Below, one piece after another: positions 746 through 57,800 of a stretch of DNA of 64,000 nt. Under the pieces are notes generated by a model, which searched no databases, was not told where the DNA came from, and saw nothing but the letters and a program-made list of their open reading frames with translations. The stretch spans positions 44,516,001 through 44,580,000 of the forward strand of contig CM114271.1 in assembly GCA_050084515.1 (NCBI GenBank). Reading direction: 5' to 3'. The position numbers were made by a program, and so were the translations under genes. Every line of letters starts with the position of its first letter. The stretch's first letter is position 1. This DNA is from Blasia pusilla (Eukaryota).

Positions 746-799
746 AGTCTCTATCGTGACTACGGTAGGACTCTCCTATGCGGGTATCGGTGGTTGCTA

Positions 800-3700
800 T
801 GGTGCAACCCTAACCCTACCACACACAGAGAACGAAATTTGCAATGAGAGAATGAGTGGAGGCTGGTCCTCTTCTCAATTATATAGGGTATGTACAAGCA
901 ACCCTAACCCTACCCTTAACCATAGTCTCGAGTTAGACTAACTGTGATGAACTAACCTTAGTTAAGATAACCATGCTTAACTGACTAACCAAGATTAAGC
1001 TTCCCTACTTCGTACCAAATGTAGTAGTTCACGTGTCTCATGAGCTTGATTGTAACTCAATCTTCAATACTCCCCCTCAAGCTCATATCGATATCTCTAA
1101 CGCCTATATCCTTTCTAAACATCTCAAACTTATCTCTAGACAATGCCTTTGTAAAGATGTCAGCAATTTGTTGATCTGTACCTATATACACAAGATCAAT
1201 TTCTCCTACAAGCACTTTCTCTCTGATAAAATGATAGTGTGCCTCAACATGCTTTGTACGAGCATGAAACACAGAGTTATTAGCAAGCTTGATGCTACTA
1301 ATATTGTCTACATATATTACACTAAGTCCTAAGTTACTAACACCAATCTCAACAAGTAATCGATGAAGCCACACCGCCTCACATGCTGCATTGGTTGCTC
1401 CTCTGTACTCAGCCTCTATTGAAGATAAAAAAATTGTAGGTTGCTTCTTTGAAGCCCAACTTATAGCTACGCTTCCCAAAGTAAATGAATAACCAGATGT
1501 GGAGTATCGATCAGACACGCTTCTTGCCCAATCAGCATCTATGAATCCCTGTAATTGAAAACTTGGAGAAGGTTCAAATTAAATCCCGAATTGAATAGAG
1601 AATTTCATATACCGCATAATCCTCCTCACAGCATCAAGGTGAGGTTTTCGAGGTGCTTGCATAAATTGGCTCACTAGGCCAACAACATAGCTCAAATCTG
1701 ATATGGTTATAGCTAGATAGATCAAACTTCCAACCATGGGCCTGTATATATTAGAATCTGTAAGCAACTCTTCTTCATCGACTCTTAGATTCACGCTCTG
1801 GTCCAACGGTGTAGAGATTGGCTTACAAGCCGTCATACCATATTTTGAAAGCATATGAAGAGCATATTGTCGTTATAGTAACCACATGCTCTCTCCAATC
1901 TTGATAAACTCAATACCAAGGAAGTACTTGAGTTCTCCCAAGTCCTTCATATCAAATTTTGCTTGTAACTTAAGCTTGACTTGTTGTACCATTTCTTCAG
2001 TATCCCCAGTAATCAAGAGATCGTCAACATACAACACAATGAGAACTGTATGATCTTGTCCTCTCAAGACATATAACGAGGAGTCAAAATCACATACCCT
2101 AAAACCTGACTCTTGTAGGACATATGTAATCTTGCCATACCGAGCTCTTGCAGCTTGTTTGAGCCTATATAGAGCTTTCTTCAACCTGCATACGCGAAAT
2201 GGAAACTTGGGATGCTCGTATCGAGGTGGTTGAATATATATATCTCCTCGTATAGATCTCCATTCAAGAAGGCATTCTTGACATCCATGTGATATAATCT
2301 CCACTTCTTACTTACTGCAATTGCAACCACTGTTCTCGTAGTCGCCATCTTTGCAACATGGCTAAATTTTTCCTCATAATCGATACCATATTGTTATGCA
2401 TAGCCCTTAGCCACCAATCTCGCTTTGTATATGTTAATTGTACCATTTTGATTATGCTTGATTTTGTAAACCCATTTGCAAACAATAGCTTCCTTACCGG
2501 AAGGTATATCAACCAACTTCCATGTTTGTTGATGTCTTAATGCAACAAGCTCTTCCTCCATAGCTTCAACCCCTTCGATTTTACTTGCAACTTCTTCAAA
2601 ATAACTCGGCTCCTATTCTTGAAGGATAGTCATCATATATGCATGATGTGTCGTAAGGAAACCTTCATTTATAAATCTATGAATTGGATGTGTAACTCTA
2701 CTTGATCTACAAAGTTGTTGATCAGAGGTAGATGCGTCTAACATCTGACCCGAGCTCTGACTAGTGTCAACACACTTAATACGTACTCTTCCCGTCCATG
2801 GACTCATAGATTTAACTGATGAATCTAGGACTTCTCATAATCCTCCACTAGTACTCGGGGAAGTTGAAGACAATGTCTATTGGTTTACAGTCATATTCCA
2901 CCCCTCAACACGCGAGTTTAGAGGTCGAATAGGCTTAGATGGAGCATACCATGACTTTAGCTCATCAAAGACAACATCCCAACTAATAATAAGATGCCTA
3001 GAGGATGGAATGTAGCACTTATATCCCTTAGTTCCATCAGCATAGCCAATGAAGATACATTTTTCAGACTTGGGGTCTAATTTCTGACGTCTCTCAGAAG
3101 GAACATGAGCATAGCAAATACAGCCAAATACTTTCAAGAAGGAAAAATCAGGTTTATTTCTTGTGAAAACTTTGAATGGAGTTTTATTATGAACTCTTAC
3201 TGTTGGAGTTTGGTTGATTAAGAAGAGTGCACATGCTACAGCCTATGACCAATACACCTTAGGCATGTTCTCATTCAACATAGCTCATGCCGCTTCAGCA
3301 ATATGTCGATTCTTCCTCTCAGCCACTCCATTTCGTTGTGGAGTGTAACGGCAAGTCACTTGATATTGGATGCCATTCTGACGTAAATAGTTATCAAACT
3401 CTGTTGAAATATTCTCTCCTCCTCCATCACAACGCAATTTCAGAATGTGTTGTCCAGTCTGCTTCTCTACTAGAACTTTGAATGTTTGGAACACTGAGAA
3501 TACCTCTTACTTGGCTTTCAGAAAGTATACCCATATGTACCTAGAGAAGTCATCAATAAATGAAACCAAGTATTAGAAACCACTAAGGCTATGTTGTGAT
3601 GTTGTCCACACATCACTGTGGATCAACTCCAATATCTTGGATACTATTCTACCTTGCTTTGGAAAAGGAAATCTTCCTTGTTTTCCAAATTGGCAAGCAA

Positions 3701-5713
3701 GACATACCTCTAACGTAGCAGGACTCGCTAATTTAGGGAGTCATATTACTATATTAGATGATAAAAGACTCAGTAATCTTTGAAGATTCATATGTCCAAT
3801 TCTTTTATGCCACACATTTAGATCTGTGACTTGTTGGCCGGTTTGAGCATACATTATTGTTTGAATCTCTAGCATAGAAACATCTAATTTGAACATTCTG
3901 CCAGATCTAGTTCTTTTGGCTATCGTAGTCTGGTCATCCATTGTTTCCGAAGGAGGCTTGGGATGCATTGGAAAAGCTGTTCCAGACATCTACAAAGGCC
4001 AGTAAGCTTCAATTGAAACAACAATTGAACGAAGTGAGGAAAGGATCGCGGAGCATCGATGATTATATTTTGAATATTATATATATTGTTGATGAGTTGA
4101 ATAGCATTGGAGAGATAGTAGAAGATGCTGATTTGATTTTATTCACTCTTCAAGGCCTTCCAAAGGATTACAAGTCCTTTGAGACCTCTATCTCTGTGAG
4201 AGAGAAGTATCCAATCTTTCAAGAGTTAGTTCCTCTGTTGATCAGTGAAGAGATCGGCCTAGTAGGCAGCGGTAGGCCTCGTCTAGTTTGCAAGAGAGTG
4301 CGCTATTTGCAGGTTATGGATCAAACCGAGGCAGGGGTAGTGGCAAAAACTTCCGTGGTCGTAATGGATATCAAGCATATGGAGGAAGAGACACTCAATA
4401 TAACGTCACTCAATCAACTACGAACTAGTACCAGACACAATCACAAGGTGGTGATGGTGGAAACCATTGGGGTTGAGGTCAGCAACAGAAGGTCCCTGGA
4501 TCTTGCAATTACTGTGGGATAAAGGGTCACTATGCAAAGTTTTGCTTCAAGACGAAGGCACATATGAGAAAAGGAGCCTTACAACAACAAAACTATGTAA
4601 AGCAACAATACCAAGAGGAGTACCAAGAACAATAATATTCACAAACGGAGCATCTCTTGGTCATGACTCATCATATGGGAGCAATGGTCAAGAAAGACTC
4701 GACAATAGATTGGTACATTGACTCTGGTACATCAAATCACATGACTTCACAAGCTAAATGGTTCAGTAGTTTGGAGCCGGTGAAAGATCTTGTAATTGTG
4801 CTCACAGGAGATGACACTCAACATCATATCACGCATACTGATAAAGTTCCAATAGCATAAGATGGTCTTTGTGCTCTTGGAAATGTTCTCTATGTTCCTA
4901 CCATTGCAAGAAATCTGATCACTGTAGGATAGATAGTAGAACATGGTTATTAAGTGAAGTTTAACGCACATGGTTGTTTCATTGAAAAAGTGGATGATCA
5001 GACTACAATAGCCAAAGGAATTAGATCTGGAAAAATATTCAAATTAGATGTTTCTATGCTTGAAGATTGAGTTTCCGAAGGAGATGTGGGATTCTCTACA
5101 AGCCAATTCCGACTAGTTCTTTCATACAGTTGATCAATTTTGGCAAATTTCATGTCTAAGCCTCCTTTAGAAACCATGGATGAACCAAAAATTGACCAAA
5201 AATTTGCCAAAATTGATAAATTGTATGAAAGAACTAGTCAAAATTGGCTTGTAGAGAGCAAACTGCACAACTTTTCTTCACTAATTGCACTTTCCTACAC
5301 TGAAATTGCTACTGCATGAGCTCAAAGAGTCAAAATCAAGCAATTTTGGATGCATTGAAAAGCTTTCGACGAGCTCTACCAGAAAGCTAGAACCAATTGT
5401 TGGCATCATTCTAGCTAAAGCGGACCCAGACGGCTGAATCGATCGGGAAAGCCCTAAAAAATGCCTCCAAAGTTTTATCACCGTCAAAGCTCCACCTGAA
5501 ATCTGCACCCACTAAGCTCTGAATAAAATTTCTTTCTCCCAAACTGAAATTGTGCCTTCTCTTGCCTCTCTCCTCTCTTCAAATACCAAGAATTTCAAGT
5601 GATGTTCTCCTCCCGCTCTGATATCATATGACAAACTGCTAAACAAGCATAATTGGTGGAAAACGGCTCTCACACACATCCCCCCCCATGGAGAACGAAA
5701 TTTGCAATGAGAG
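800..5713 (-). mobile_element. Decayed, internally rearranged Ty1/Copia LTR retrotransposon
   Basis: RNase H (ISWASKKQ, EAEYRG, ARTKHVE, ADIFTKAL; 1057-1518). RT (LKKALYRLKQA, LYVDDLL; 1873-2304). Integrase (LRCDGGGE, TPQRNGVAERKNR; 3285-3494). PPT GAGGGGGAG on - at ~1069-1078. PBS-like TGATATCAGAGC on - at 5615-5626. LTR remnants ~800-1066 and 5629-5713 share GAGAACGAAATTTGCAATGAGAG. Confidence 0.9.
3941..5070 (+). pseudogene. Copia gag (UBN2-like, CCHC knuckle) and protease, inverted relative to the rest of the Copia pol
   Basis: PKEAWDALEKLF...TLQGLPKDY; knuckle CNYCGIKGHYAKFC at ~4504-4545; protease WYIDSGTSNHMT in ORF 4657-4860. Confidence 0.88.
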
Positions 5714-5829
5714 GATCTCGCCCCCAGCCACTACCTCCACCGTCTCGGTAGGCATGGAGCTCACTAACGCAACCCAGCTGTGATCTGTCGCGATCTCATA
5801 CGACGCTGCTCAGCCACTCCCAAGCTGAA

Positions 5830-6768
5830 GATCCATGTCGTGAAGTTCAGATCCATCGCTTGACCCAAGACATGGCGTCGTGATGCCTTTGACACTGACG
5901 GTACTGCCGTCACTCTTGTGGGAAATCCCATCGCTCGCTCTCCCTCGTCGACGTTGGGCTCCACCAACCGCTGAACCTGGTCATCCCAAACCAAGCTTGA
6001 ACCGGCCTCCTTGTATGCATAGAAAGCAGGAAAACTCACAAACGTGGGCAAGGCTACCCGCGGCCTATATACCCTATTGACCACAGTCAACGGTGGTCGA
6101 TCATCGTGCCTCACTACCTGTGATCGACGACATGGATCCATAATGGAATCCACTAACAAATGGGAGGGGCGCTCCACTCTCGCATACGCCCTGTGGAACA
6201 CCGCATGGGGCACCAAGTTGGTCCACCATGGACGCGGGAGATGGGCTCTAGAACCTACACTTTCCGCATCGAAGAACATTGCTGGGCCGATCCAGGCACG
6301 CACTTGATGAGCACTCGTCACCATCCGTGACGTGGAGACTCCTAAGATTGGTATATTCTCCAGAATGTAGGCTGGAGAACAAGACTGGTGCTCCTACAAC
6401 TGCCATAAAACCCTCAACATCTCCCAAAATAACCTGGACCGAGTGTCAGTCAACCCGCTGTCTCGTCCAGCACTCGATTGGCCCTGACATGGCCGAGCGG
6501 CAATGACCGATTCAATGGTCCCTACCCGCTCTAAGTTCTACGCTCCCAACAACGAAATATCCCTTGGTAGGGAACTTTGGTACCCCAATACCGCGGACGC
6601 AGACAATAAGTTGGGAAAATATAGGCGTAACTGCACCACATGTCGTAGTGAGACGCGCCTCGCAACATCATCACTCTCCACATACATGTACTCTTGTACT
6701 CGCACTCATGCTTGCAAAATAGCAGCTAACCCGGTGCTAATCCCTCCAAAGAGATCTAACACTCGAAT
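5830..6768 (-). pseudogene. DNMT3-like C5-cytosine DNA methyltransferase domain inside Gypsy pol (3 in-frame stops)
   Basis: Single reading frame. Motif I IRVLDLFGGISTGLAA (starts 6768); motif IV VIAARPCQGQSSAG (PCQ at 6492-6484); motif V GLTDTRSRLFWE; motif VI YILENI (6360); motif VIII DAESVGSRAHLPRPWWTNL; motif IX EGERAMGFP; motif X RRHVLGQAMD. Stops at 6708, 6540 and 6396. Confidence 0.9.
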
Positions 6769-9700
6769 ATCCTCCTCCGGGATACATCACACAATGGATG
6801 TGGTATCCAAGGGTATCATCGTAGCACTCCTTGCTACCTCGGGTTCCTTAGATCCGTCACATTCTGATGCAAACGCCTCGCTCCATGCGGTCTGCACGTG
6901 CTCATCTGCCAATTTTCGAAGCTCCTCAGTCAAGCCTCACAACGGCACCTCTCCTCCACGGAATGATGCGGCTACCATAACACTCCTCTCCATAGAAATG
7001 TCAAGAACGGGAGTATCCTCTGCATGGACATGTCCCTCAATCAAATCACTAGGCCAAGTGATGGCACTGCTAAATGCTGCTAAGGTCGCCACTTCTCCTG
7101 ACCGTCGCTCGATCACTACACCTGTGGATCGAACGGGTAATGAGCTAAGGCGCCCATCACCTGACTGCCATCCTGGTATGTAGGACGCTGAATCCTCCCA
7201 GTAATCCAGGGAAAACCCCATCGGGTATAACACTGCTCCACCAACCAAGATGTCGTAGGACTCTGCATCAGTCACTATCGCGTTGGCTCGCACCACGGAC
7301 TCATGTGTAGGATGTCACGGGCGAATCCTCACCACGACCTCTTGTTGGGTGCTATATTGTGTGGTACTCGCTCCACACAAGGATGTCTATATCCGGAATG
7401 GATGACGCTCCACATCGGCTCTCGTCAAGCCCAATCCTCTAAATGACGCTATCCCCAACATCAGGGGTTGAGCTCCTCAATCCAACAAGACGCGCTGCGG
7501 ACTAAAAGCTCTACCTCCAGGACTCACCAACTGGAAGACCTCTCCTCGGTTATCCAGCAACACAACACCAGGAGAAGCCATGGCACGCTCTATCGGGGGT
7601 CTAGCGGGCATCTCCGCCATCCTAGCAGCTGCAGCCTGCCATGAATCTGACGTGGACGGCCCGAGCATCCGCTCCAAGGGCAAGTCCATCACCTCCTCTG
7701 CAATCACCTCTGAACGTGATGCAAGAACTCCAACTCCATGCTCACATAGCGTAGCGGCCAGCCAAAAAGCCTCGGCGGGCGTACCCCCCAATGTCATAAC
7801 ATCGGAAGCAGAAAATAAAGGAGCACGATACACAATGGTGGCCGCCCCCCAACAACTTGCTCGACGCATGCCCCTCTTGAGCATCAACAAAAGGAGTCGT
7901 CACACTCGCTTCTCCCATCGCCCTCCGTGCTTGCACACCAACAACATCACCAACTCTCCACGAATTCTGATTAGGACCCATCGATGGAGTCCTCATCGCC
8001 TCGGACAACGTGAAAGACTGAGGAAGCCTAGTATGTTTCCTGGCTTCCCCTCGCGGTGGCCAACTCTGCGGCTGCCTTGCACATCCAACCACGATCCTCC
8101 ATATCTCTCGCTACTCCATATTATGTCGATGCCACGGATCTCGCATCGGGTAATCTCAATGCCATAACAACAATCTACTCTTATAGCTGATGTATCTGAG
8201 CAGCCATCCTAGCCTCACGCCTAGCATCTCCCTCCACGCGTCTAGCTGGTAGGACTCTACCTCCTCCACGGGCAGTTCCACCTCCGTGTCGGGCAACTCC
8301 AACTCCTCGTCCCCCAACGGGACCACCTGGTGCACGATCTCTAGGCCCCCCCAGACCAGCTACTTACTCTGGTGCCCTCTCTGGCCCTCGGTCCGGACGT
8401 AACTCAGGATGTAAACTGAAACAACTAGCGCGTGTATGACCATACCTCTAAGAATAGTCACACTGATAACCTCCTGGTGCAACACCGTCTCCTCCTCCAT
8501 GTTGAGACACATGTCCATGACCCTGAGGAGTGCAATCGCGCTGATGATGGCTCCAGCACATGACCAACAAGTAATAGTAGGCTGCTGTTGCTGAGCCGCA
8601 TATGAAGGCGCAGGTCTCTATGGCGCGGCCTCCCGGTATCCTCCCTGAGCTCATGGTGCCACAGTCGACCTATCTCGGAGTCCACGTTGCTGCACAGATG
8701 GTGCAGACAATCGCGACTGCTCTCGCCGAGAACCCATGGTGGCTACGCTCTCCTCCGCCATGTTGCGCTCAATGTTCTCGGCGGTCCTAAGAACATCTCT
8801 CAACGTAGGGAAGGTATTCATAAGAATCACCCCTCCTGCACCCGTGTCCGCAGGGTTCGGTCCAGCATCGCGTACCAAGACTGGATAGCCTGAGCCTTTG
8901 TCACCCCTGAGTGACGTTGATCAACCAGCACAAGTGAGTGTAAGCCTCACGCAAACTCTCACCTGGGCGCCTCAAGAAGTTGTGGATGCTCCGTAACTTC
9001 TCCGTCCGTACCCCTTAGTAGCTCGTCCTCAACTCAGCAAAGAACTCAACCACGAGGTTGAACCTAGGACGAACCCGACTAGACGGTGTAACTGCTCTCA
9101 TGCGAGTGACCCCTCCTAAAGCGTCACTCGTGGAAGAGGTAGTAGCCTCTCCTCACTCCTCCTCCTCATCTGGGAACGGCTCCGTCCATGACACATAATG
9201 TGGGTCATAGTAGAGCCTCCACGCCTCGATCTCATGTGCATATCTGTGAGAGAACTCATGGTAATCGTCCATGGGCGCCCCCTCTAAATGCTCAAATATA
9301 CCGTTCCATGTTGTAAATGGGTTTAACTTTCTAGAGTTCCTGGCCCGCAGGGAGTCGCACCAACTCCTAAACTCTGCTATGAAATCATGCAACTCAATCG
9401 TACCTACAGCACCTGAAAACCTACACGGTCCTCTTCCTTGGTCGTCCATCTTGTACGCCTAACTGGTAGGACCACTCTCAATGTGCGGTGATATGCTCAC
9501 AAACTCCTCTACATCCTCCCCCCTGTCTGACGATGACACAGAAGGAGGTCGAGGTGGTCCCTCACGTGGAGACCCTCGGAACCTCGTGCCACTCTGCGTA
9601 AAATCTCTAGAGCTACTCTCGGGTTCACCACCTCCCCTCTCAAAGTCCCGAATGGACGCCGTGATGACCCTCGTGCCCCTCTCACTCGATCACTCTCAAC

Positions 9701-11027
9701 CTCATGAGTAATCCCTGAATCACTCATCCCAAACATGCGGCACTCGATCTACACTCTCCCTCCCCGAGACATGTAACATGCGGCAACAGCGGCGTGGTGC
9801 GGTAAATCGACGAGGCTATCATCTTATCGACAACCTACCCTCAACTCCGGACATCCCACACAAGTCTATGTACCCTAAACCACATACATAAATGATGCTC
9901 TCAACATCCACAAAACCCAATATCCCCAAATAAACTACCCAAAACCCAAAATCCCTCACGCGTGCAAGGTTAAGGACCATAATGGATAACTTGAATACAT
10001 GTCGATGTCGCTCCTCAAAAATTGCAAATCTTGACCCGAACTTGGTCGTGGAGACAATTCCTCCAATCAGCAAGTCATACTCCTCCCGTACTAATGCTGC
10101 TCAAAACTCCTCGATAGACAATGCGGTTCCAGTGGAACGGTGCGGCGTTGCAGGCGGTACGAAACGGCTATGAACCGCACGACCCTCGATAGTGGGATGC
10201 GGCACTCGGTGGCATACCCTCATCAATCAACAATAAACCCACACTCTTCTCCACAATGACGGAGTGGTTCCATGATCGGGACGGTGCGGTGCGGCCACGA
10301 GCGACACGGAGCGGCAATCGGCGGTGCGTTGCGGCTACGGGCATCACGGCACGGTACTCGATCGTCGTCGAGTGGCTACCAATCACAACATAGCAGGATG
10401 AAATCAAAACTCAAACACCATAATTGAAGGTCATCTGCCATCACTGGTTGATGACGAAACTGCGATGACGGTGGCGGCCAAAACAAAGTACGTGGTGGCA
10501 ATGAACGGGGAGATCCGGGGTTTAGTGTATTCGTAGCCGGCAGTTTTTTGAAATTGCCGTCTTTGCTCCAGAGAGGCCAGCGGAGATTCCGGCGTATATG
10601 ACCGAGTTCCCGGAAGTAGGCAGAGTAGAGTCAATAGAGCCGAAAACTCCCCGGGAATTTCAGAGGCTCGACCAGAATTACATCGGCGACGGGAGGAGAC
10701 ACCTGAAATTGACCGATTTTATATTCCGGGATCACGGAATACTACTAGAACAGTTTCCGGCAACCGGAAAACTGATGACTTGTGATTGGAGGGGAAATGG
10801 AGGGACGGATATGCACTCTTGTGGCAGTTAAAAATCCTGGCCGCACAATAGAGGGTTTACCAAAACCCCAAAATCCGCCGCATCCTAAACCTTCACTGCC
10901 CTCCGAGAACCGTTCGATGCCTCATCCGAGCGACACCGAGCAAACCAGGTGCCGCGATTCCCATGAACAGGGGTGAGAGGGTGCGGACTCGGAGTCAGGC
11001 CTGGGGACCGTGGGGTATCTCCTCTCC

Positions 11028-11425
11028 GGCTCATTGTGCACGCTGCTTTGCTCTAGCCTCTAAGCCGCGGCTCTGCGTTTTGCACTCTTGCTCTTGCACC
11101 TTCGATTGCTCTCGCGCCTTTTCTGCCGACTCGCTCTTGCACCTTCGATTGCCATCGCGCCCTTACTGCTGGCGCTCTTGCTCGTTGTTGCGCTCTTGCA
11201 CCTTAGATTGCCGCTTTGCTAGGCTCATTGTGCAGGGTCGCTTTGCTCTGTTGTAAGCCGCGGCTCTGGATTTTGCACTCCTGCTCGCTGACTCGCTCTT
11301 GCACCTTCGAGGCTCTGATTGGTGTCGCGCTCTTGCCTGTTGAGCGCTCTTGGTCATTGGGAACCTGTCACTGCGTTCTTGCATGGTTAGGACGCTCTTG
11401 CCTGGTATTTGCGCTCTTGCTCGTT
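11028..11425. repeat. Imperfect tandem repeats (GCTCTTGCACCTTCGATTGC-type units; ~195 bp higher-order duplication) upstream of the hAT transposase
   Basis: GCTCATTGTGCA at ~11028 and ~11223; TAAGCCGCGGCTCTG at ~11061 and ~11254; many GCTCTTG units. Possibly subterminal repeats. Confidence 0.6.
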
Positions 11426-12116
11426 GATGCGCTCTTCTGCTATTATGTCTTGTTTTTAGTGCCCGTTTCCTTTCTTTCTTTGCGTTGAGAGCGACTGTTC
11501 CGAAACGTGTCTTTTCTTGCCGAACTTCGGCCGCCTTTCGTTCGTGCTACAACTCATAGTTGTGTCTCTCACTTTGACATGCTTCCGCTCTTGGAGTTTG
11601 AGTGCTATTCTCTAAACCTTATCAGCCCGCGTTCATAGGTCTCTTCTTTGCCTTGTACCCACGCTTTTGCTCTTGTTGCGGTTCCGTAGTTCGTTGCAAG
11701 ATCATTAGTCGCCTTGTAACCACGCTGCTAGCAATCTTTGTGTCATCTTTGCAAAGCCCTAGTCATGCCGAATGTCCTCACCCAGATGTCTCCTTGATGA
11801 TGAATTTGGTCGAGCTTGATTATGGCATCGATTGAGATCGATTGCTCTCTACTGTTGTAGCTTTTGCTGTACTACATCAGAGATCCTACTGTTGCTCATA
11901 ACTTGTGCATTGGGGCAGCATAGGCTTCTTCTTGACTTCATTAGTTTAAGACATTTAGAGTCGTAGTTTCCTGTGCTTGACGATGTGAGTGGGTTCAGAT
12001 TGTGGCATTCTACACCTCTTACTCATAGCACTATTCATAATACCCTCACACACGGCCTCTGTGTACTCTCGACTCAAGACTTCCCTAGCTTTGCCCTACT
12101 TTGGATTGGGTTTGGT

Positions 12117-14270
12117 ATGGCTAAACGCCAGAGAACCATGAATGAATTGCTCTCAAAGGAGGTTCCAAAGGAACATCTTGATATCATAGCTTTGTCGGGA
12201 TCATCTGATGAGAGGGAAGACCAGAGTACGTTAGGCAGCACTCCATCCATACCTGAGAAAAATCGTGTAGCTTGGAAGGATGTGTGGTATACAATGTATG
12301 ATTGGATCAGCTTTGATAAAACAAGTGGGAGGATCCATTGTAATGTATGTAGAAAGGGTAAAGGAAAGAGTGTATTTGCTAGGGATGGTGCAATCAATTG
12401 TAAAGTTTCGACATTCATAGATCATGCAAAATCGAACGAGCATGTAAAGCTTGCTTGGGCAGCCAATGGAGGTAAGAAATCTATGGCAAAGGCCATCGCC
12501 ACATCCAACCGAACCTGTGAGGTTGCATTCTTGACTTTATTCAAGTGTGCATATTTTCTTGCAAAGGAGGCCATGCCCTTCTCAAAATTCACGGGTCTCT
12601 GTAAATTGTTGCTTGCTGTGAATGCACCTATCACCAGGGACCTTTATCAAGATGAAAAGAGTTGTAGTGTCATGTGTTTTTTCATTAGCCAAATTTTGAT
12701 GAAGAGGACTCTAGCTAGAGTTCAATCATCTCCTTTCTTTGGGATTTTGATCGACGAATCTACAGATATTTCGGTGACAGGGCATTTAGTTGTGTTTGCA
12801 ACATTCATAGAAGAGGGTCAAGCTGAGTGTTGTTTTCTAGGGCTGATTCGTTGTGAATCTAAATGTTCTAATGCTATCACTAATACTTTGTTGGAGTTTA
12901 TGAAAGATGGAGGGCTAGAGTATACCAAAATGGTTGGATTTGGTTCAGATGGGGCCTCTACAATGGTAGGTAGCCAAATTGGGGTAGCTTCTCAATTGAA
13001 GCAAAAGGTTAACCCGTTTCTACTCTCTATACATTGTGTAGCGCACGGAACCAATCTTGTTGCTTTAACAGCAGCAAGAGCACCTGATTGTAAAGTCATT
13101 TCAACATAAATTGATTCTATTTTGAATGCCGTAGCAGGGTATTTCAAAAGGTCATCAAAGAGGAAAGCTAACCTAGCATCACTTCAAGAGAAGTTGAATG
13201 ACTCTCAACGAGTTATGAAGAGGTATCATAAAATAAGATGGTTGTCACGTTGGCAGGCTGTATGTACATTGTGTGATTCACTTGAGTCTCAGTATTGACA
13301 TACTTTAGGATATTTCCCCTTGAAGATGACGGCAATGCCTCAAATTTATACAACAAGTTAAGATCATTCCAAATGATCTATCACTTATATTTTTTAGCTG
13401 ATATTCTTTCCAACCTTGCTAACTTGAGCAAGATTTTCCAATACAAGTTTGTTGATGTTAGTACTATTGGCAGCATTGTTACTTCAGAGATTACTTCTAT
13501 TACCATGAATTTTGTGATGGAAAGTCGAGATTTGAATGCATCTTTATTTTCAGAAGAAACAGGTTATCATATCCTACCTGATTTTGGTCCCCCCGATGGA
13601 TATCTTAGACGTTTGCAATCAGAGATTAGGGGTAATAAGTTTCATAGCATAGAAATGTTGAGAGACCGCACAGGCAAGGATTTGGAATATGCTCTCTTAT
13701 TTCAGAAGTCATATGCTGAAAGTGTTTGTTTAGCATTGCAAGAAAGATTCAGGGACAACAATCTTATTGGTGCAATGAGGATTTTGAACCCATTGTACAT
13801 GCCCTCTCGGCAAGTTGGGTTAAATAGCTGGGGATGTAAGGACTTGGAAGATTTGTGTGCACATTTTGGATGTGAGTTACCATTGAGGGGACATCTCAAC
13901 CCTCTGTCATAAATTGTTTCTTTGTGAAGCAAGAATTTCAGTCATTCAAGTTGATGGCTACAACCGAGTGGAAAGATCGTAATTTCCAAGACTTATGGGC
14001 AATGGTGAGTTGGAGCCCCACTTTACAATGTAAGTTTGCTAACTTGCTTGTTTTGGCTAATGTTGCAAGGGTTCAATGTGTTAGCACTGCCATATGTGAG
14101 AGGGCTTTTTCAATTCAGAATTTGATCAAGACTAAGACTGTAATCGACTAGGTACTAAACATCTAGATGATGTATTAAGGATTGCTTTAGAAGGACCTAC
14201 AAGTGACTATGACGACATGTTGTCCGAATCTGTCATATTATGGAAGACTTTGCTAATTTTAGGTACTTGT
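12117..14270 (+). mobile_element. hAT-superfamily transposase pseudogene (ZNF862/KIAA1586-like)
   Basis: TTF-like Zn finger (HCNVC...HAKSNEH), IDESTD, GSDGASTM, HCVAH, RWLSRW, C-terminal STAICERAFS dimerisation motif. Stop at 13107 and frameshifts near 13290 and 13910. TIRs not found. Confidence 0.9.
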
Positions 14271-50171: not shown

Positions 50172-51851
50172 GTTGTCGTGCGCATACACATCGCTACACA
50201 ACTTACATCATTGTCACCGAACACACACACATAAACACGCACCATCCCATGCTAACTCATGGCATCCAAAAAATGAGACAAGAAGTACCCAAATATCTCC
50301 AATCGCCCCCCTAGCTGGTGGTTAGGTCCCTCTAACTCTAGATAGCCATCTATCCCTACGTACCATGATATACATCTCTCGGACGTTAAGAGCAAGAAGG
50401 TCGGGTGCTCATGTGGCCCTATCGTTAGTCGCCTTCTCGTCATCCATGTCATAGACACAATTCGGAATGTAGAACTACCTACTCTATGGACATCTGGGAC
50501 ACATCCATCGTCCCTGAGGAACCCATATGGCGTCAAACATGCCATATGCTATCCTCTCAAACAACCATCACAAACTAGCATAGTGGCTGCACCACGGGCG
50601 GAACCACACAACATACACCGCAAGCCTGCAGGAACTATTGCTAAGTTCGGATCAACTGTACCGTCAATGTTTGGAAGATGCCATAGCGTACAGTTACGCG
50701 CATGGTCCTTCCAAACCATACCATCGTGTCCCTCTAATAAGAGAACACCGGATGGCAAAACCTCATGCACTCTCAAGATGGTGCACCATGCAGTTACATC
50801 CAATGTCGTAGGTGCCGTGTGCTGCAAGTAGACATAGTCTCCTTAATGAAAACTCCAGATAGTAGGTCGATAACTATCTCCCCGAATAATCGCATATCTC
50901 AATGTATCCCGATGTTGCGCAATCCCCAAGATCTCACACGCCATGGGCATCACTCTCTGAAACAACTCAGCCCTCTGAGAACATGCTTGCATCCATACAT
51001 CGTGGTCATCAAGGTTCAACACCTCACCAACATCTCGACACGTAAATCTGGCTCTCGGCCATAAAGCAACAAGTACGGTGAGAAAGACGCTAAGGATGTC
51101 TGTCTGCTGAATTTGTATCCCATCGCCAACCATGACAACTGAAGGTCCCAATCTCCTAGATGACCTCTCTGCAAGCCATACTTACGTAGTCCTCTCTTCA
51201 CCATCTGCACAACCCGCTCCACTAGTCCATCCGCCTCAAGATGATCTCGCAAAGTAGTACGGTGGTCGATCAATGCTTGATCACACAAGGCCTGAAACTC
51301 CCCGCGGAACTGTGTACCCTGGTCTGTCAACACCTCAGCTAGTGCGCCGTAATGACTCAGCACTTGATATAGGAAGGCATACGCTACTCCCTCACTCGCT
51401 TTGTTAGGCAATGCAACCAACTCTATCCACTTCGAGAAGTGCTTGACCATCACCAACACATAACGACTATGGCGCTCCGTCAAAGGCAAAGGTCCTGCAA
51501 AATCCAAACTCCATTTGTAACCTAAATCCATGATCGGAAGTGGATGCAACTGTGGAGTCGGATCATTGAACGATGCTCGGACTCGATCACACACCATGCA
51601 TCTGGCAATAAATTGTTGAACGTAAGTATGCATGCCTCGCCACCAATACTGAATCTAGAGCAAGTTGTACATCCGCTTCACTCCAAAATGACCCAACTCC
51701 TCACGGGCATGACGCACCAAATGTGCTCTCTATAAAGGATGAGGCACTACATGCACTCTACCATCCTCCCACACTCTCAACATATGTGTGCCCTCCCATC
51801 GGAACCATCTCGCTCGTTGTAGGATCCGATCCCGCTCTCTAGCACCCACTA

Positions 51852-54800
51852 TGTCGCGCCCCTACTCTCCTTGAACGTCAATCTTTATTGTTGCGGAAGC
51901 ATATATTCAGTAGGACACGATCTCATCGCCGATTTGCACCCAAACACGCACTCTCGTTAGTCGGGTCTAGGCCAACCAACGTTCCAACCCACCGAGTTCT
52001 CAACTCGGCGTCTCATCAAGCTCAACCTTCCTTACTTCCTAGTTTCCAAAATATGGCAAGTCCTCCAAGACTTGGAACAGACTTCCTGATTAGTCCAAGA
52101 ACCTAAAATGGCACTTGCGCGCCTAGCGATCCCAATTGTTCAACGGACCTCGTGTGAGTTCCAAACCGAGATCCAAGTAATTGAGTCGCGGGGTGAAATC
52201 CAAGAGGGATGTCTAAAATCGCCTCCATAGACTTGGTTCAAGTTTTCCAACCCAACCCCAAACTCTCAATCCGTTCCATGCCTGTCGCGACCCTCATGAC
52301 CAAACAAGTGCCAAGCGGAACATCGGAACATTAGCGGGCTCACGCTAAGATGGTTTGCGCGTTGGAGTTGTCTCAAAGAGGAAACAAGAGACGAGACAAG
52401 AGACGAGACGCGAGCGAGGAGTCGCGTTTCAGATGTTATGGTCGCGACTGAGAAACTTGGACCAAACGCGAAATGAGACTTGAAAGAAGTCGAGTCTAGG
52501 AAGTGGGTTGCCAAAGGAAAGATCCGGATTTGGAACGCCACTAGCGTTTGAGAGTTTCCGACTGTATTTATGGCCATAACTTTTAGCGCCAAGATGCGTT
52601 TGGAAAAAATAAGGGTGCGTTGGAAAGCTTATGGAGAGCCGGTCCAAACGCACTAAAGATTGCTGCAAACGCATAAGTGACGGCCGAGATACAACCCAAA
52701 AACGACTACAAGTGGAGTCGGGTTGAGGGCCACAATGAAGGGCCCGACCCTCTTTTCTCATAGGGGAGGGGTTATTGGAGAACCCCAGAAGTACTAGTAA
52801 AGGGGAAGGTCTCCGAGAGTGCTTGGAACCCAAACCCCACTTTGGGCACCGCAGGGCAGCCCAAGGGCATGGAACGGAACGCGAGTTTGGGGATTGGGTT
52901 GGAAAACCTGCACCAAGTCCATTGAGGCGATTTGAGACATCCCTCTTGGATTCCACCCCGCGACTCAATTACTTGGGTCTCGGTTCGGAACTCACCCGAG
53001 GACCGTTGAACAGTTGGGATCGCTAGGCGCGCAAGTGCCGTTTCAGATCCCTGGACCAACCAGAAAGTCTGTTCCAAATCTTGAAGGACTTGCCATATTT
53101 TGGAAACTAGGAACTAAGGAAGGTTGAGCTTGATGAGACGCCGAGTTGAGGACTCGGTGGGTTGGAACGCTGGTTGGCCCAGACCCGACTAACGAGAGTG
53201 CGTGTTTGGGTGCAGATCAGCGATGAGTTCGTGACCTACTGAATGTACGCTTCCGCAACACCAAAGATTGACGTTCAAGTAGGGGCGCGACAAGTGGTAT
53301 CAGAGCTAATCCTTGGTGAGCGAGAACTTGGGGTCGTGGGATCAACCGGACGCTTGGGGAAACTCAAAGGTAGCGGCTAGACTCAGACGCTCGAGGAGGG
53401 ACGCAAGACCGAGGAGGAGATCTGAGTGAGTTGGCTTGGAAATGGCGATCGAGGGAGAACAAACCAAGAAGCGCCGAATCAAGCGACGTGAACCAAGAGA
53501 GGAACCAATGCCGGACCGTGAAGCTATAGAGGAGCGGAGACTCAAGAGCGAACGCCATGATCGTGAGGGCGTTAGGAGGCGAATCCTTCCGCGGGGCCAA
53601 TGGGCCCAAACTCAGGGGAACGGACCGAGTCGAGCCAGACGTTGGACTTGTTAAAGATGTTGGTGGAGCAGATGTCCCAGCAAAGCAAGCGGACTGCAGA
53701 GTTAGAGGCCACTCGAACCCCGGGTGCAGGCAAAAAGCTCTGCAAGACAAACCTGCCCACGCCATTCACTAGAGTGGGGCGCTCGCGGAAAGTGAAGGAT
53801 TTCCTTATGGAACTGGAACTGTACTTCGAGGCGCAGAGGGCAGCTGAGCAGGACAAGGTGACGATAGCCGTTACTTTCCTAAAGGATCATGCTCTACAAT
53901 GGTGGACAGCTCAACGAGAGGAATATCTGGGCGGCGAGTCACCTCTGAGTTGGGAGGAGTTCAAGGAGTTGATTGGGGATCGGTTCACTCCGAAGTACCA
54001 AGGGTTGCGCGACACGATGGAATGCGTGCGGATGCGGCAGAGTGGTTCCTTAAGCGCGTATGTGAGGGAGTTTAGTGCGAAACTGACTTCTAGTCCAAAG
54101 ATGGATGAGCACGCGAAGAAGGCTATCTTCATTAGTGGACTCAAGCCGAGCGCTGAAAAGGCCCTTTACCGAATGCCGACGTTGCCAGAGACCTGCGCGG
54201 ATCTTCTCAGGCTAGCGGAGCGGATTGGGGACGATGAGGTCCAAACCCAGAAACCCTTCGAGCCAAAAGGTTTTTCGAAGAAGTCAAAAAATAAGGAGGC
54301 GTTCAAAAGAGGTTGGAGTGGGGGCTAGCACAAACCAGGAGAGTCGTCTGCCCCGGCAGTAAAACGAGTGGAACTTCATGCGAAACCGAAAGGAGGACAA
54401 CACTCAAAGTCAGGGAACGGCAAGGTAGTATGCTACAACTGTGGCGAACCTGGACACCTGGCAAAAGGGTGTTCAAAACCGAAGGTTAGTAATGGGAGTA
54501 TGATTGCGTTTGTTGCTAAGCATCTGTTGGCGGGCGATCTCGAGACGTCCCTTCAAGTCACCAAGAGGACGCACAATTTGGTGTACCTAAAATCCAAGAT
54601 TGCTGATTGCGATGTGTTGTTGCTCGTGGATACAGGTGCTTCGCACTCCTTCCTAATCCCGAGAATCGTGAAGAAACTGGGGCTCTCTACCTCTAAGGCG
54701 GATGAGCCCATTCGAGTAGGATTTGCAGGAGGCAAGTCTCATCGGACTTCTGATTTGATCTTGGGTTTGACAGTAGGATGCGGGGTATTCGAGTCGAAGG

Positions 54801-57800
54801 AGAATTTCACTGTGTGCGAAATGGATGGCATTGACGGAGTCTTGGGGAATACATTCCTAGATGCGTATGAGGTGGAGTTAAGACGTAGACCCTTGAGGTT
54901 GAGCGTCTTGCTAAAAGGCAAACGGTTAGAGGTGCGGTTGGTCCGTGAGGTTCCAACAAAAATGGAGTTAGTGAACTTGATCACAAGGAGGAGCATGACT
55001 GAGTTGGAGGATGGATTTCTCTGCTTGATGAGACAAGTGGAGGAGGCTACAAGCAGTATACGCAGAGATGAGGACACTGCCTTGAGGGGAGTCCCAGAAC
55101 CACTCCAGGAAGTGGTCAAGGAGTTTGAGGATGTCTTGACAAATGAGCTTCCGACAGAATTGCCGCCGCATAGAGCCGTAGATCATAAGATAGAGATCAT
55201 ACCCGGTTCCCAACCGCCTTCAAAAGCACCATATAGGTTGAATCAGGAGGAACTTCTTAAGTTAAAAAAGAAGTTAAGTGAGCTCTTGGAAAAGGGTTAC
55301 ATTAGGACTAGCAAGTCACCTTATGGAGCACATGTTCTCTTTGTAAAGAAGAAGGATGGAAAGATGAGGCTGTGTGTTGATTACCGTGCACTGAGCAAAG
55401 TGACGGTTCGGAACAATTATCCTCTTCCGAGGATAGATGATCTCTTTGATAGGGTGGCAGGCGCGAGATATTTCAGTAGGATTGACTTGAAGTCAGGATA
55501 TTACCAGATTCGGATTGCCGAGGCAGATGTGGAGAAAGCTGCGTGCGGGGGCGAGATCTGGTTCCTTTGAGTTTGTAGTGATGCCTTTCGGTCTATGTAA
55601 CGCGCCTCCAACGTTCACCACATTGATGAACTCTATTTTTCACAAGGAAATGGATGAGTATGTTATCATCTATATCGATGACATACTTATCTATTCGAAG
55701 TCACTAGAGGAGCACGTTCGACATGTGAGAGCGGTCGTGTCTAAGCTAAGGGCAAATAAGTTGTATGCGAATGTAGAGAAGAGCGAATTTGGTTTGAGTA
55801 AGATCAAATGCTTGGGTCACATGGTCAGTGCAGATGGCGTCAGTCCAGACATGGAGAAGGTGAAAGAATTTCCGAGCGGGAACCCCCATCCACTGTAAAG
55901 GGGATGAGGAGGTTCATAGGTGCGGTGCAATTTTATCGTACTTATGTGAAACTTTTCGGGAATTGTTAGACCTCTCACGGATTGGACAGTAAAGTTTGCC
56001 AACACGACTTGGACCCAGGAAGTTAATGAGGCATTCAACCGAGTGAAGCAGATTCTATCGCATGAACCAGTGTTGAAGCTGCCGGAGTTTGACAAACCGT
56101 TCGAAGTGCATACCGATGCTAGTGATTTCGTGGTTGCAGGAATGTTGGTGCAAGAAGGGAGACCGGTGGCATATGAGAGCAAGAAGCTTAGCGATACTGA
56201 AAGGAGATGGCCTACTCACGAGAAAGAGTTGTTTGCGGTGGTACATTGCTTGAGGAAGTGGTGGCATTATCTAGGGCTCCACAGGACTCGAGTATTCACC
56301 GCTAATATATCACTCAAGTATTTTGAGACCCAGGATCGAGTGACACCGAAACAATTGCGATGGCATGATACCTTGGCGTTGATGGATGTTGAGTTGATTC
56401 ACAAGCCAAGTAAAGATAATGTGATTCCAGATGCGTTAAGTCGCAAGGAGGAACACATGCCATCGACGACACAGGTCTTGAGAGCAATGTTCCCTAAAGA
56501 AACAGATCTGGAAAGAAGGATTCGTGAAGGATATATGAAGGATGCTCAAGCAAGGGAGTACCTGAGGAAGTTGAAGCAGGGGGAGAAGGTGGCCAACATA
56601 AGTTTGAGGCACGGTTTACTAAGGTTCAAACAGAGTAGGATCTATGTAGGGCAAGGCGGGATGCGAACCAAGGTGTTAGCGAAGTGTCACGACAGGCCCT
56701 TGGCAGGACATAAAGGAGAGAAATCTACGCTAGCTGCTTGTATTCGGCGGTTCTTCTAGCCCAACATGAAAGAGGATGTTGCTCAATATGTGAAGACTGT
56801 GTGACTGCCAAGCGAATAGAGTCTCTTATGATAAGAAAGCAGGGCTTGTTGCATCCCTTGCCGATCCGAAGGACCCTTGCAAAGTGTGAGTATGGATTTC
56901 ATCACGAGTCTTCGGAATCCGAGGATACAACGCTATACTTGTGATTGTTGATCGGTTTAGCAAGTTGGCGAGATTCGTGCCGGCGGTGGATTCATAACGG
57001 CTTATCTGACAACGCAACTATTCCTCGATAGGCGGTGGCGTGCTCATGGTTTTCGAGGAGCATTTTTGGATTGGATCAAAGTTTACCAGTGCTTTCGGAA
57101 GCACTTATTCAAAAGGTTTAAGACCAAGCTGAGTTTGATCGGCTTTCCACCTGAGACGGATGGACAGATGAAAAGGTAAACTCTATCGTAAATCAGATTA
57201 AGGAATTATGTCGGTCTTGATCAACGCGATTGGGTCAAGTGGTGAGCATGGCGGAATCTTTGCTACAACTCGACCAAGCATGCAAGGAATGGAGAATCTC
57301 CGTTTCTCCTGGCAAATGGACGAGAGCCACAAGGGCCTCTTGATCTAGCCCTTTCGAAGGATACTACATTGGCACAAACACGACAAGCGACGGCAGAAGG
57401 TTTGTTGGTAGAGATGCGAGAACGAGAGGAGCGCGCGAGGCGAAGTCTTGCAAAGGCTCAAATGAGGTACGTTAAGCATGCTAACAAGAGTCGGGGCCAA
57501 GTACGATTCCAAGTTGGAGAACAAGTGTGGTTGAGTGTCAAGAACCTCACTCTTCCAAAAGAGTTGTCTGCGAAGCTGTCTGCCAAGTATGTTGGACCGT
57601 ATGTGATTGTGGCAAACCCGTTTGAGGATGTGTATACGTTGAGGCTGCCGGACGAGTTCAAGATTCACCCAACCTTTCATGTGTCATTGTTGAAGAAATA
57701 TCTTCAAGATAATGGACGTTTCGCGCGGAGACAGGTGGTGAGACCACACTCGGTCATTGTAAATGAAGAGCCGGAGTTTGAGGTGGGGACCATCTTACGT

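Follow-up and report, generated by a model that had tools for sequence, protein, structure and literature searches.

The 64,000-nt stretch of Blasia pusilla DNA analysed here, referred to below as the window (GenBank assembly GCA_050084515.1, contig CM114271.1, positions 44,516,001 to 44,580,000), holds on its minus strand a dead copy of a Ty3/Gypsy-type retrotransposon, disrupted by a nested insertion, in which a putative C5 cytosine methyltransferase domain of the DNMT3 type (MT) lies between the aspartic protease (PR) and the reverse transcriptase (RT). Over 709 codons, from 7890 to 5764, the minus strand stays in one frame, interrupted by 8 internal stops and closed by a terminal one. A sequence-only reading of the same stretch had proposed that minus-strand open reading frames (ORFs) link through stops into one frame, and the translation confirmed it; the three ORFs that it named exist, but their limits, given as 7477-7890, 6937-7296 and 5764-6324, are actually 7477-7899, 6937-7314 and 5764-6393. 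An aspartic-protease-like stretch opens the frame, with YDILVGG after an LLD-x-GAQ active-site motif that is interrupted by a stop codon, and the MT comes next, with its motif IV PCQ at 6492-6484. The protease and MT motifs quoted in that reading were all found in the translation, as were the three stops said to lie in the MT domain, and one further stop is located just upstream of it.

Polyproteins of Marchantia polymorpha are collinear with the window over the gag region (about 9450-8400), PR-MT (7842-5767), a linker (5767-5702) and RT (751-1), and the tblastn matches of three Marchantia proteins (P0202, P0207 and P0214) to the gag region of the window begin at about 9450. The linker peptide at 5767-5702 is in another frame than the MT (tblastn with P0207 and P0202), and many RNA reads carry a 2-letter indel relative to the window at 5775. 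Since the Marchantia polyproteins align collinearly across the insert that follows, the RT at 775-1 was assigned to the same element as PR and MT, in agreement with the proposal that RT resumes past a Copia insertion; Pfam recognises RVT_1 on 318-1, and the window RT is 61-71% identical to the RT of Marchantia P0205 and P0207 and collinear with it past the insert. The placement of the MT between the PR and RT of a Gypsy element, also read from the letters, is borne out by the same collinearity. The RVT_1-type RT with a PR upstream in the window, and the RNase H (RH) and integrase (INT) that follow RT in the relatives, are features of Ty3/Gypsy elements; RH and INT of the window copy would fall beyond the window edge, and its 3' end lies outside the window. 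The window PR is collinear with the PR of a relative (P0004) and with that of Klebsormidium nitens (P0038), and two other relatives (P0248 and P0265) have a precomputed match to PF13650 (aspartic protease). A tblastn search within the window found a single copy of the MT. The features are collected in Table 1.

Table 1. Parts of the Gypsy-type copy and of its nested insert (window positions).
Feature	Start	End	Strand	Evidence
gag region, decayed, in several frames	8400	9450	-	tblastn, Marchantia P0200 residues 9-354 on 9434-8400, 36% identity
Aspartic protease (PR)	7174	7566	-	own PR HMM, residues 109-239 of the window frame (P0001)
PR-to-MT linker, same frame, weakly conserved	6775	7173	-	translation, alignment to P0004 and P0005
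DNMT3-like C5 cytosine MT domain, putative enzyme, 3 internal stops	5812	6774	-	PF00145, DNMT3A in PDB, own HMM
MT-to-RT linker, frame change near 5767-5775	5717	5811	-	tblastn, P0207 and P0202
Foreign insert of about 4.9 kb, rearranged Copia-type element, within the MT-RT linker	776	5716	.	Pfam domains, read breaks
Linker end and N-terminal part of Gypsy RT, frameshifted; the element leaves the window at its start	1	775	-	RVT_1, Marchantia collinearity

Several lines of evidence point to the identity of the domain. PF00145 matched the MT of the window with 26.6 bits against a gathering cut-off of 22 (E 5e-6), over the motif IV-VI stretch only, so that this check, which the sequence-only reading had put forward, was positive; the relatives scored 30-45 bits. 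When the window frame was compared with PDB by phmmer, DNMT3A was the best match (E 1e-8), with motifs I-VIII and IX-X in canonical order, and an alignment to DNMT3A and 26 relatives placed motifs I, IV, VI, VIII, IX and X in the same order. A family profile of 27 sequences, namely the window and these 26 relatives, matched DNMT3A at 1.4e-25, DNMT3C at 2.6e-22 and DNMT3B at 3e-22, as compared with 1.4e-17 for DRM, 4.6e-9 for M.HhaI and about 1e-6 for DNMT2, and no DNMT1 was listed at E<=0.01. DRM, the next-best family, was matched in two stretches, as expected because it is circularly permuted; by contrast, the MT of the window family and plant DRM2 differ in that the former is not. The AlphaFold model of an intact relative (P0162) was confident over the whole catalytic domain (pLDDT 89.1, pTM 0.88), and among the chains listed by Foldseek for this model there were only DNMT3A, DNMT3B and DNMT3C, the best being 6w89_A (E 3.8e-19, target TM 0.84). 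By these matches and by the modelled fold, the domain is DNMT3-like and non-permuted, which agrees with the original assignment.

The 27 MT sequences share nine invariant columns, including the catalytic Cys and the Glu of the ENV motif, and conservation reaches 90% or more in a further 21. Of 44 columns with strong conservation, the window copy has lost 7 and agrees with the family at 37, the catalytic Cys and the Glu of ENV being retained. With three stops in the domain and 7 of the 44 conserved columns changed, this copy is unable to give an enzyme, a statement that concerns the copy and not the family. In the window frame (P0001), PF00145 was the only Pfam domain recognised; neither PWWP nor ADD, nor any companion domain of plant DNMT3, was found, and the neighbours of the MT are PR and RT. 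Judged from its sequence surroundings, the domain is transposon-borne and not a host-type DNMT3 gene. With host DNMT3A, DNMT3B and DNMT3C the MT of the family shares the catalytic fold and the motif order; it differs from host DNMT3 in having no PWWP or ADD domain, in being intronless and part of a polyprotein, and in a longer region between motifs VIII and IX.

A single MT in a window whose region is full of nested insertions could be explained by a fragment of a host DNMT3 gene captured by, or lying within, one Gypsy copy, without being a trait of the family. The relatives speak otherwise. An exhaustive HMMER search with the MT domain returned 1,409 cluster representatives at E<=1e-3, 130 of them at E<=1e-30, and many of these relatives are proteins of 1,000-3,400 aa with the MT in mid-protein. 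The closest ones, found by word-index search, are 45-62% identical. Organism names were available for 8 of the 35 near-length matches, every one of them a bryophyte (Calypogeia fissa, Sphagnum troendelagicum, S. jensenii and Marchantia polymorpha); 16 of the 19 longer matches were named, 14 from Marchantia and one each from Calypogeia and Sphagnum fallax. Thus the nearest named relatives are those of Marchantia, Calypogeia and Sphagnum, in line with the expected extension to land plants, and dozens of copies are already present as 'hypothetical proteins' in the public annotations of these three genera.

To describe the layouts, our own HMMs for PR, MT, RT, RH, INT and the PHD finger were built from Pfam-delimited segments and mapped onto all the collected proteins. 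The 271 MT-bearing proteins comprised 62 of a type A, PR-MT(-RT-RH-INT), 120 of a type B, (PR-)RT-RH-MT-INT-PHD, and 89 fragments, and Pfam on example proteins confirmed both layouts. Type A came from Marchantia, Calypogeia, Sphagnum, Closterium, K. nitens and metagenomes. In metagenome contigs 80 loci were found, and 80 of 80 have the MT; PR was directly upstream in 50, RT downstream in 58, and the MT stood alone in 7. Wherever the contig was long enough the order was PR-MT-RT-RH-INT-PHD, no locus of the 80 showing another order within one element, and in one of them (L002) PR-MT-RT-RH-INT is in one frame. Streptophyte-type copies carry the PHD finger after the integrase (loci L006, L040, L042, L073 and others). 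Two DNA runs labelled as the organism of the window contributed 10,469 and 12,016 contig pieces aligned to 5702-9460 at a likeness of at least 80%; the summed contig depth was about equal over the MT bins (3,344-7,321) and the gag bins (2,278-7,703), and no MT-removing joint was seen among the best-supported joints of these contigs. Because the MT occupies the same position in other copies, as seen in 62 proteins with the PR-MT-RT order, in all the metagenome loci and in the depth of the DNA runs, and with PR and MT of the window sharing one frame, a one-off capture is ruled out for practical purposes and we give it a negligible probability. Copies of the family lacking the MT at this position, which the sequence-only reading had named as the finding that would speak against it, were not what these data contain. 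The MT is an integral, inherited pol domain of a family with the order gag-PR-MT-RT-RH-INT-PHD.

Such a family has a described counterpart. The sequence-only reading had noted that retrotransposons carrying DNA methyltransferases are known in dinoflagellates and charophyte algae (de Mendoza et al. 2018); for dinoflagellates and, on the charophyte side, for K. nitens, this agrees with PMC5890265. That paper reports a Gypsy element of K. nitens (KnitGypsy-Dnmt3) whose Pol ORF contains Dnmt3 domains, with key residues conserved and Ka/Ks < 0.2; the domains form a divergent Dnmt3-related clade, acquired 'in the K. nitens lineage'. The K. nitens protein in our collection (P0038, GAQ93235.1; PR 587-710, MT 829-1152) has the same PR-then-MT order as the window copy and is collinear with the window frame, the MT being 33% identical over 319 aa (E 8e-46) and the PR 26% over 112 aa (E 1e-4); we infer that it is one of the copies of de Mendoza et al. 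Both systems are Gypsy elements that encode, within Pol, a Dnmt3-like domain that is not permuted. The legend of Fig. 4c in PMC5890265 gives the repeats of KnitGypsy-Dnmt3 as arranged A-coding-B-A-B, and the same arrangement was found in one relative of the window copy: when terminal repeats were sought in 10 relative loci, A-coding-B-A-B was seen only in L073, an element of about 9.2 kb, while the A pair alone was seen in L006 and L040, and none in the other 7. The two systems differ in that the MT of the window belongs to a land-plant-type host and to a bryophyte clade apart from the K. nitens clade, and in that K. nitens has few copies according to PMC5890265, whereas there are many diverged copies in the organism of the window.

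The relationships were examined in a quick IQ-TREE tree of 50 MT domains and in a FastTree of 108 rows, both composed of the transposon-borne family. In the IQ-TREE tree the MT of the window falls in an 11-row clade with Marchantia, Calypogeia and Sphagnum (SH-aLRT 100), Closterium forms one clade (SH-aLRT 99), K. nitens is in a separate clade, and all 16 type-B rows lie on one side of a branch (SH-aLRT 99); the FastTree agrees with it. Closterium is the source of four type-A representatives (P0036, P0045, P0049 and P0097) and of two cluster members (P0280 and P0281). On this sequence evidence, the window element is a land-plant (most likely bryophyte) member of the streptophyte Gypsy-DNMT3 lineage first described in K. 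nitens. Within the bryophyte clade, a path of no more than about 0.36 changes per site separates the MT of the moss Sphagnum from that of the liverwort Marchantia, and Marchantia pairs with Sphagnum and not with its fellow liverwort Calypogeia. Strong constraint could account for this closeness, and so could a horizontal transfer between bryophytes.

The named hosts of type B are chlorophytes (Haematococcus lacustris, Chromochloris zofingiensis and Cymbomonas tetramitiformis). Type B includes P0008, P0012, P0020, P0034, P0093, P0231, P0262, P0111 and about 110 more proteins, and P0008 has a Tudor domain. These elements share with the window family a homologous DNMT3-like domain (33-42% identity), the Gypsy RT, RH and INT, and a C-terminal PHD finger; they differ in that the MT is located between RNase H and integrase, as RT-RH-MT-INT-PHD(-Tudor), and not between PR and RT. 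Chromoviruses, with their pol-encoded chromodomain, offer a parallel to the PHD finger of the window family. Another one is found in the arthropod Copia-MBD elements (PMC6673714), where the epigenetic module encoded in pol is an MBD rather than a PHD finger. Both chromoviruses and Copia-MBD are known to have readers only, whereas the window family would combine a putative writer with a reader. A further parallel is SymbioDIRS-Dnmt3 of Symbiodinium, in which a Dnmt3-type domain also lies in a retrotransposon Pol, methylation of the cDNA has been proposed and de novo CG methylation in yeast was shown (PMC5890265); it differs in being a DIRS element with a tyrosine recombinase, in its dinoflagellate host and, according to the authors, in an independent acquisition.

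The window copy itself is heavily decayed, and the statement that it is dead was fully justified: it has 8 stops, the frame change between MT and linker, the 4.9 kb insertion and frameshifts in gag and RT. At many sites nearly all the other copies, in DNA and RNA, carry a letter other than that of the window. At least two of the stop codons, from a listing of 40 rows, belong to these sites, so that such defects are private to the window copy. In one run (X1), A>G (77) and T>C (81) account for 158 of 292 differing places, the window having mostly A/T where the others have G/C. Such an A/T excess is what deamination of cytosines would be expected to leave in a copy that is silenced. The observed/expected ratio of CpG is 0.79 in the Gypsy element, 0.46 in the Copia insert and 0.69 in the whole window, the value of the element thus being higher despite the A/T pattern. 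The context of the C/G-to-T/A differences private to the window was mostly CHH, in only 21 of the 40 listed rows, too few to interpret.

Transcripts of the family were found in two stranded RNA-seq runs of the organism of the window, in the form of raw reads, which are the whole of the RNA evidence. The runs gave 1,720 and 1,332 reads, all 30 bins from gag to MT were covered, and the reads were in the expected sense orientation by about 10:1 or more. Other copies of the family are therefore transcribed; the window copy was not seen to be.

The constraint on the domain was estimated by pairwise ratios of nonsynonymous to synonymous changes (dN/dS, Nei-Gojobori, stops skipped, pairs with dS 0.05-0.3), mostly on dead metagenome copies. 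The values were 0.57 for MT (median of 677 pairs), 0.60 for PR, 0.44 for RT, 0.39 for RH and 0.45 for INT; that of the MT is below 1 but inflated by decay. Between lineages the identity of the MT was 36-50% against 24-42% for PR, the MT being higher in 5 of 6 pairs, and that of RT, available for two pairs, was 51-56%, above the MT. These comparisons suggest that the MT domain has been kept under selection, weaker than that on RT, and present activity is not proven by this.

We propose that in intact copies the MT would be translated within Gag-Pol and would either be released by the protease of the element or stay on Pol. It might then travel with the particle or with the pre-integration complex, and methylate cytosines of the new cDNA of the element or of the DNA at the integration site, while the C-terminal PHD finger on the integrase might read a histone mark and so give chromatin targeting. 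Candidate benefits to the element could be mimicry of host methylation, self-limitation or the avoidance of another silencing route. The role suggested here for the MT of the window family is the same idea that de Mendoza et al. advanced for DIRS elements (PMC5890265), and the cleavage, packaging and cDNA methylation put forward in the sequence-only reading are likewise hypothetical. To the reading as a whole, that is a dead and nested-disrupted Gypsy-DNMT3 copy with an integral MT, for which a role in intact copies is inferred, we assign a probability of about 0.85.

Several observations weigh against it. Pfam gave no match for the ORF pieces of the gag region of the window copy and did not recognise its PR, and long terminal repeats (LTRs) of this copy could not be defined, since 9400-12000 has no repeat elsewhere in the window; the repeat search made for this purpose gave only a 43-nt tandem family at 11078-11204. 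The assignment to DNMT3 comes from PDB matches and a predicted fold, and not from a rooted tree with host DNMT3. The sense reading of the RNA assumes a dUTP-type library, and in the two runs no read was at least 99% like the window copy, with 40 and 25 reads at 95-99%. The MT was open over at least 93% of the model in only 2 of the 80 metagenome loci, its density of stops (1.66 per 100 codons) was the highest of the five domains, the others having 1.02-1.38, and together with PR it showed the weakest constraint by dN/dS. Enzyme activity is putative for the whole Gypsy-DNMT3 lineage: when the KnitGypsy domain was assayed on its own in yeast, no de novo methylation was obtained (PMC5890265), a result that the authors called inconclusive, human DNMT3B having failed there as well.

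Taken together, the last of these points would suit a family trait that no longer works as a DNA methyltransferase, but persists as a relic, as a module binding S-adenosylmethionine or DNA, or as an RNA methyltransferase acting on the genomic RNA. The inactivity of the K. nitens domain in yeast, the 2 open copies among 46 in-frame metagenome MT copies, the excess of stops in the MT and its dN/dS go in this direction, as does the PCQ of motif IV in place of the PCN of DNMT3A in the alignment. On the other hand, among sequences that are only 31-45% identical, motifs I, IX and X, the catalytic Cys, the Glu of ENV and the R-x-R of motif VIII either do not vary or are conserved to 88% or more, the MT outconserves PR in most of the pairs from Klebsormidium to bryophytes, the fold predicted for the intact relative spans the catalytic domain with confidence, and human DNMT3B was likewise inactive in the yeast assay. 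We consider this explanation unlikely. An active MT might also have host chromatin as its target, be it the surroundings of the integration site, further transposons or genes of the host; the PHD finger may serve as its reader, and the MT would in this way feed the host methylome. The many diverged copies and the transcripts of the family, as well as the PHD finger after the integrase in the polyprotein, would agree with it, and de Mendoza et al. raised an accidental activity of retrotransposon Dnmt3 on the host genome; but the methylome of K. nitens was reported to be plant-like in spite of its copies (PMC5890265), and the CpG ratio of the element is not below that of the window. Such an action on the host we regard as rather doubtful.

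As for the nested insert, Pfam recognised RVT_2, SH3_retrovirus, rve, Retrotran_gag_2 and Pol_BBD within 776-5716. Contigs and RNA reads of other copies depart from the window sequence exactly at 5716, so the upper edge is supported by reads, and the lower edge is known approximately. Close to each end there is a copy of a 26-nt direct repeat (828-853 and 5691-5716); LTRs of the insert were sought and nothing beyond this repeat aligns. The insert is rearranged, with gag and a protease-side domain on the plus strand (3929-4860) and INT-RT on the minus strand (1057-3506), and the flipped part is flanked on its two sides by an 80-nt inverted repeat (3868-3947 and 4984-5063). A primer-binding-site-like 12-mer at 5615-5626 was discarded, as 3 matches were found against 5.0 expected by chance.

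Other elements are present in the window. At 50303-51853, on the minus strand, there are the INT and PHD-finger part of a second copy of the Gypsy-DNMT3 family, 75% identical to the INT of L042 at the amino-acid level and 71% identical to L073 at the nucleotide level; because its PR, MT and RT are absent from the window, this second copy is truncated or split by insertions. ORFs of a hAT-like or ZBED-type transposase (Pfam zf-C17orf113 and DUF4371) lie on the plus strand at 11967-14151, just upstream of the Gypsy 5' region, and at 55181-56447, on the plus strand, an unrelated Gypsy element is represented by its RT-RNase H, which shares about 30% identity with the RT-RH of the family. Air-metagenome runs contain small shares of the words of the window, on which we base no habitat claim.

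With respect to what has been published, the K. nitens type, which is of the same lineage and has the same PR-MT order, is known, and the extension of the Gypsy-DNMT3 lineage to land plants would be new. We found no report of Gypsy-DNMT3 in land plants, or of the chlorophyte layout, in full-text literature searches that did not extend to subscription journals and supplements; passages of PMC11982613, PMC10952607 and PMC6453930 do not mention transposon-borne DNMT3 in bryophytes, and those of PMC12344493 and of a preprint (10.64898/2026.05.21.726589) cite the Gypsy-DNMT3 case merely as 'streptophytes'.

Retrotransposons encoding the class of enzyme that hosts use to silence them are a paradox documented in few lineages, and the K. 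nitens type is now found in mosses and liverworts, among them Marchantia polymorpha, which is amenable to genetics. The question of the role of the enzyme now reaches organisms that allow knock-outs, methylomes and transposition assays. The sister layout of chlorophytes and the common PHD finger suggest an old modular epigenetic toolkit in the Gypsy elements of the green lineage. Tentatively, and at present with more doubt than confidence, one could go further and see Gypsy-DNMT3 as an ancient green-lineage superfamily in which MT and PHD form a 'writer plus reader', arranged as PR-MT-RT in streptophytes and RH-MT-INT in chlorophytes, which would persist into land plants, in many diverged and transcribed copies, with an MT active on its own cDNA or landing sites. 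If this were true, part of the de novo methylation of bryophytes would be transposon-encoded, and Marchantia would make it directly testable.

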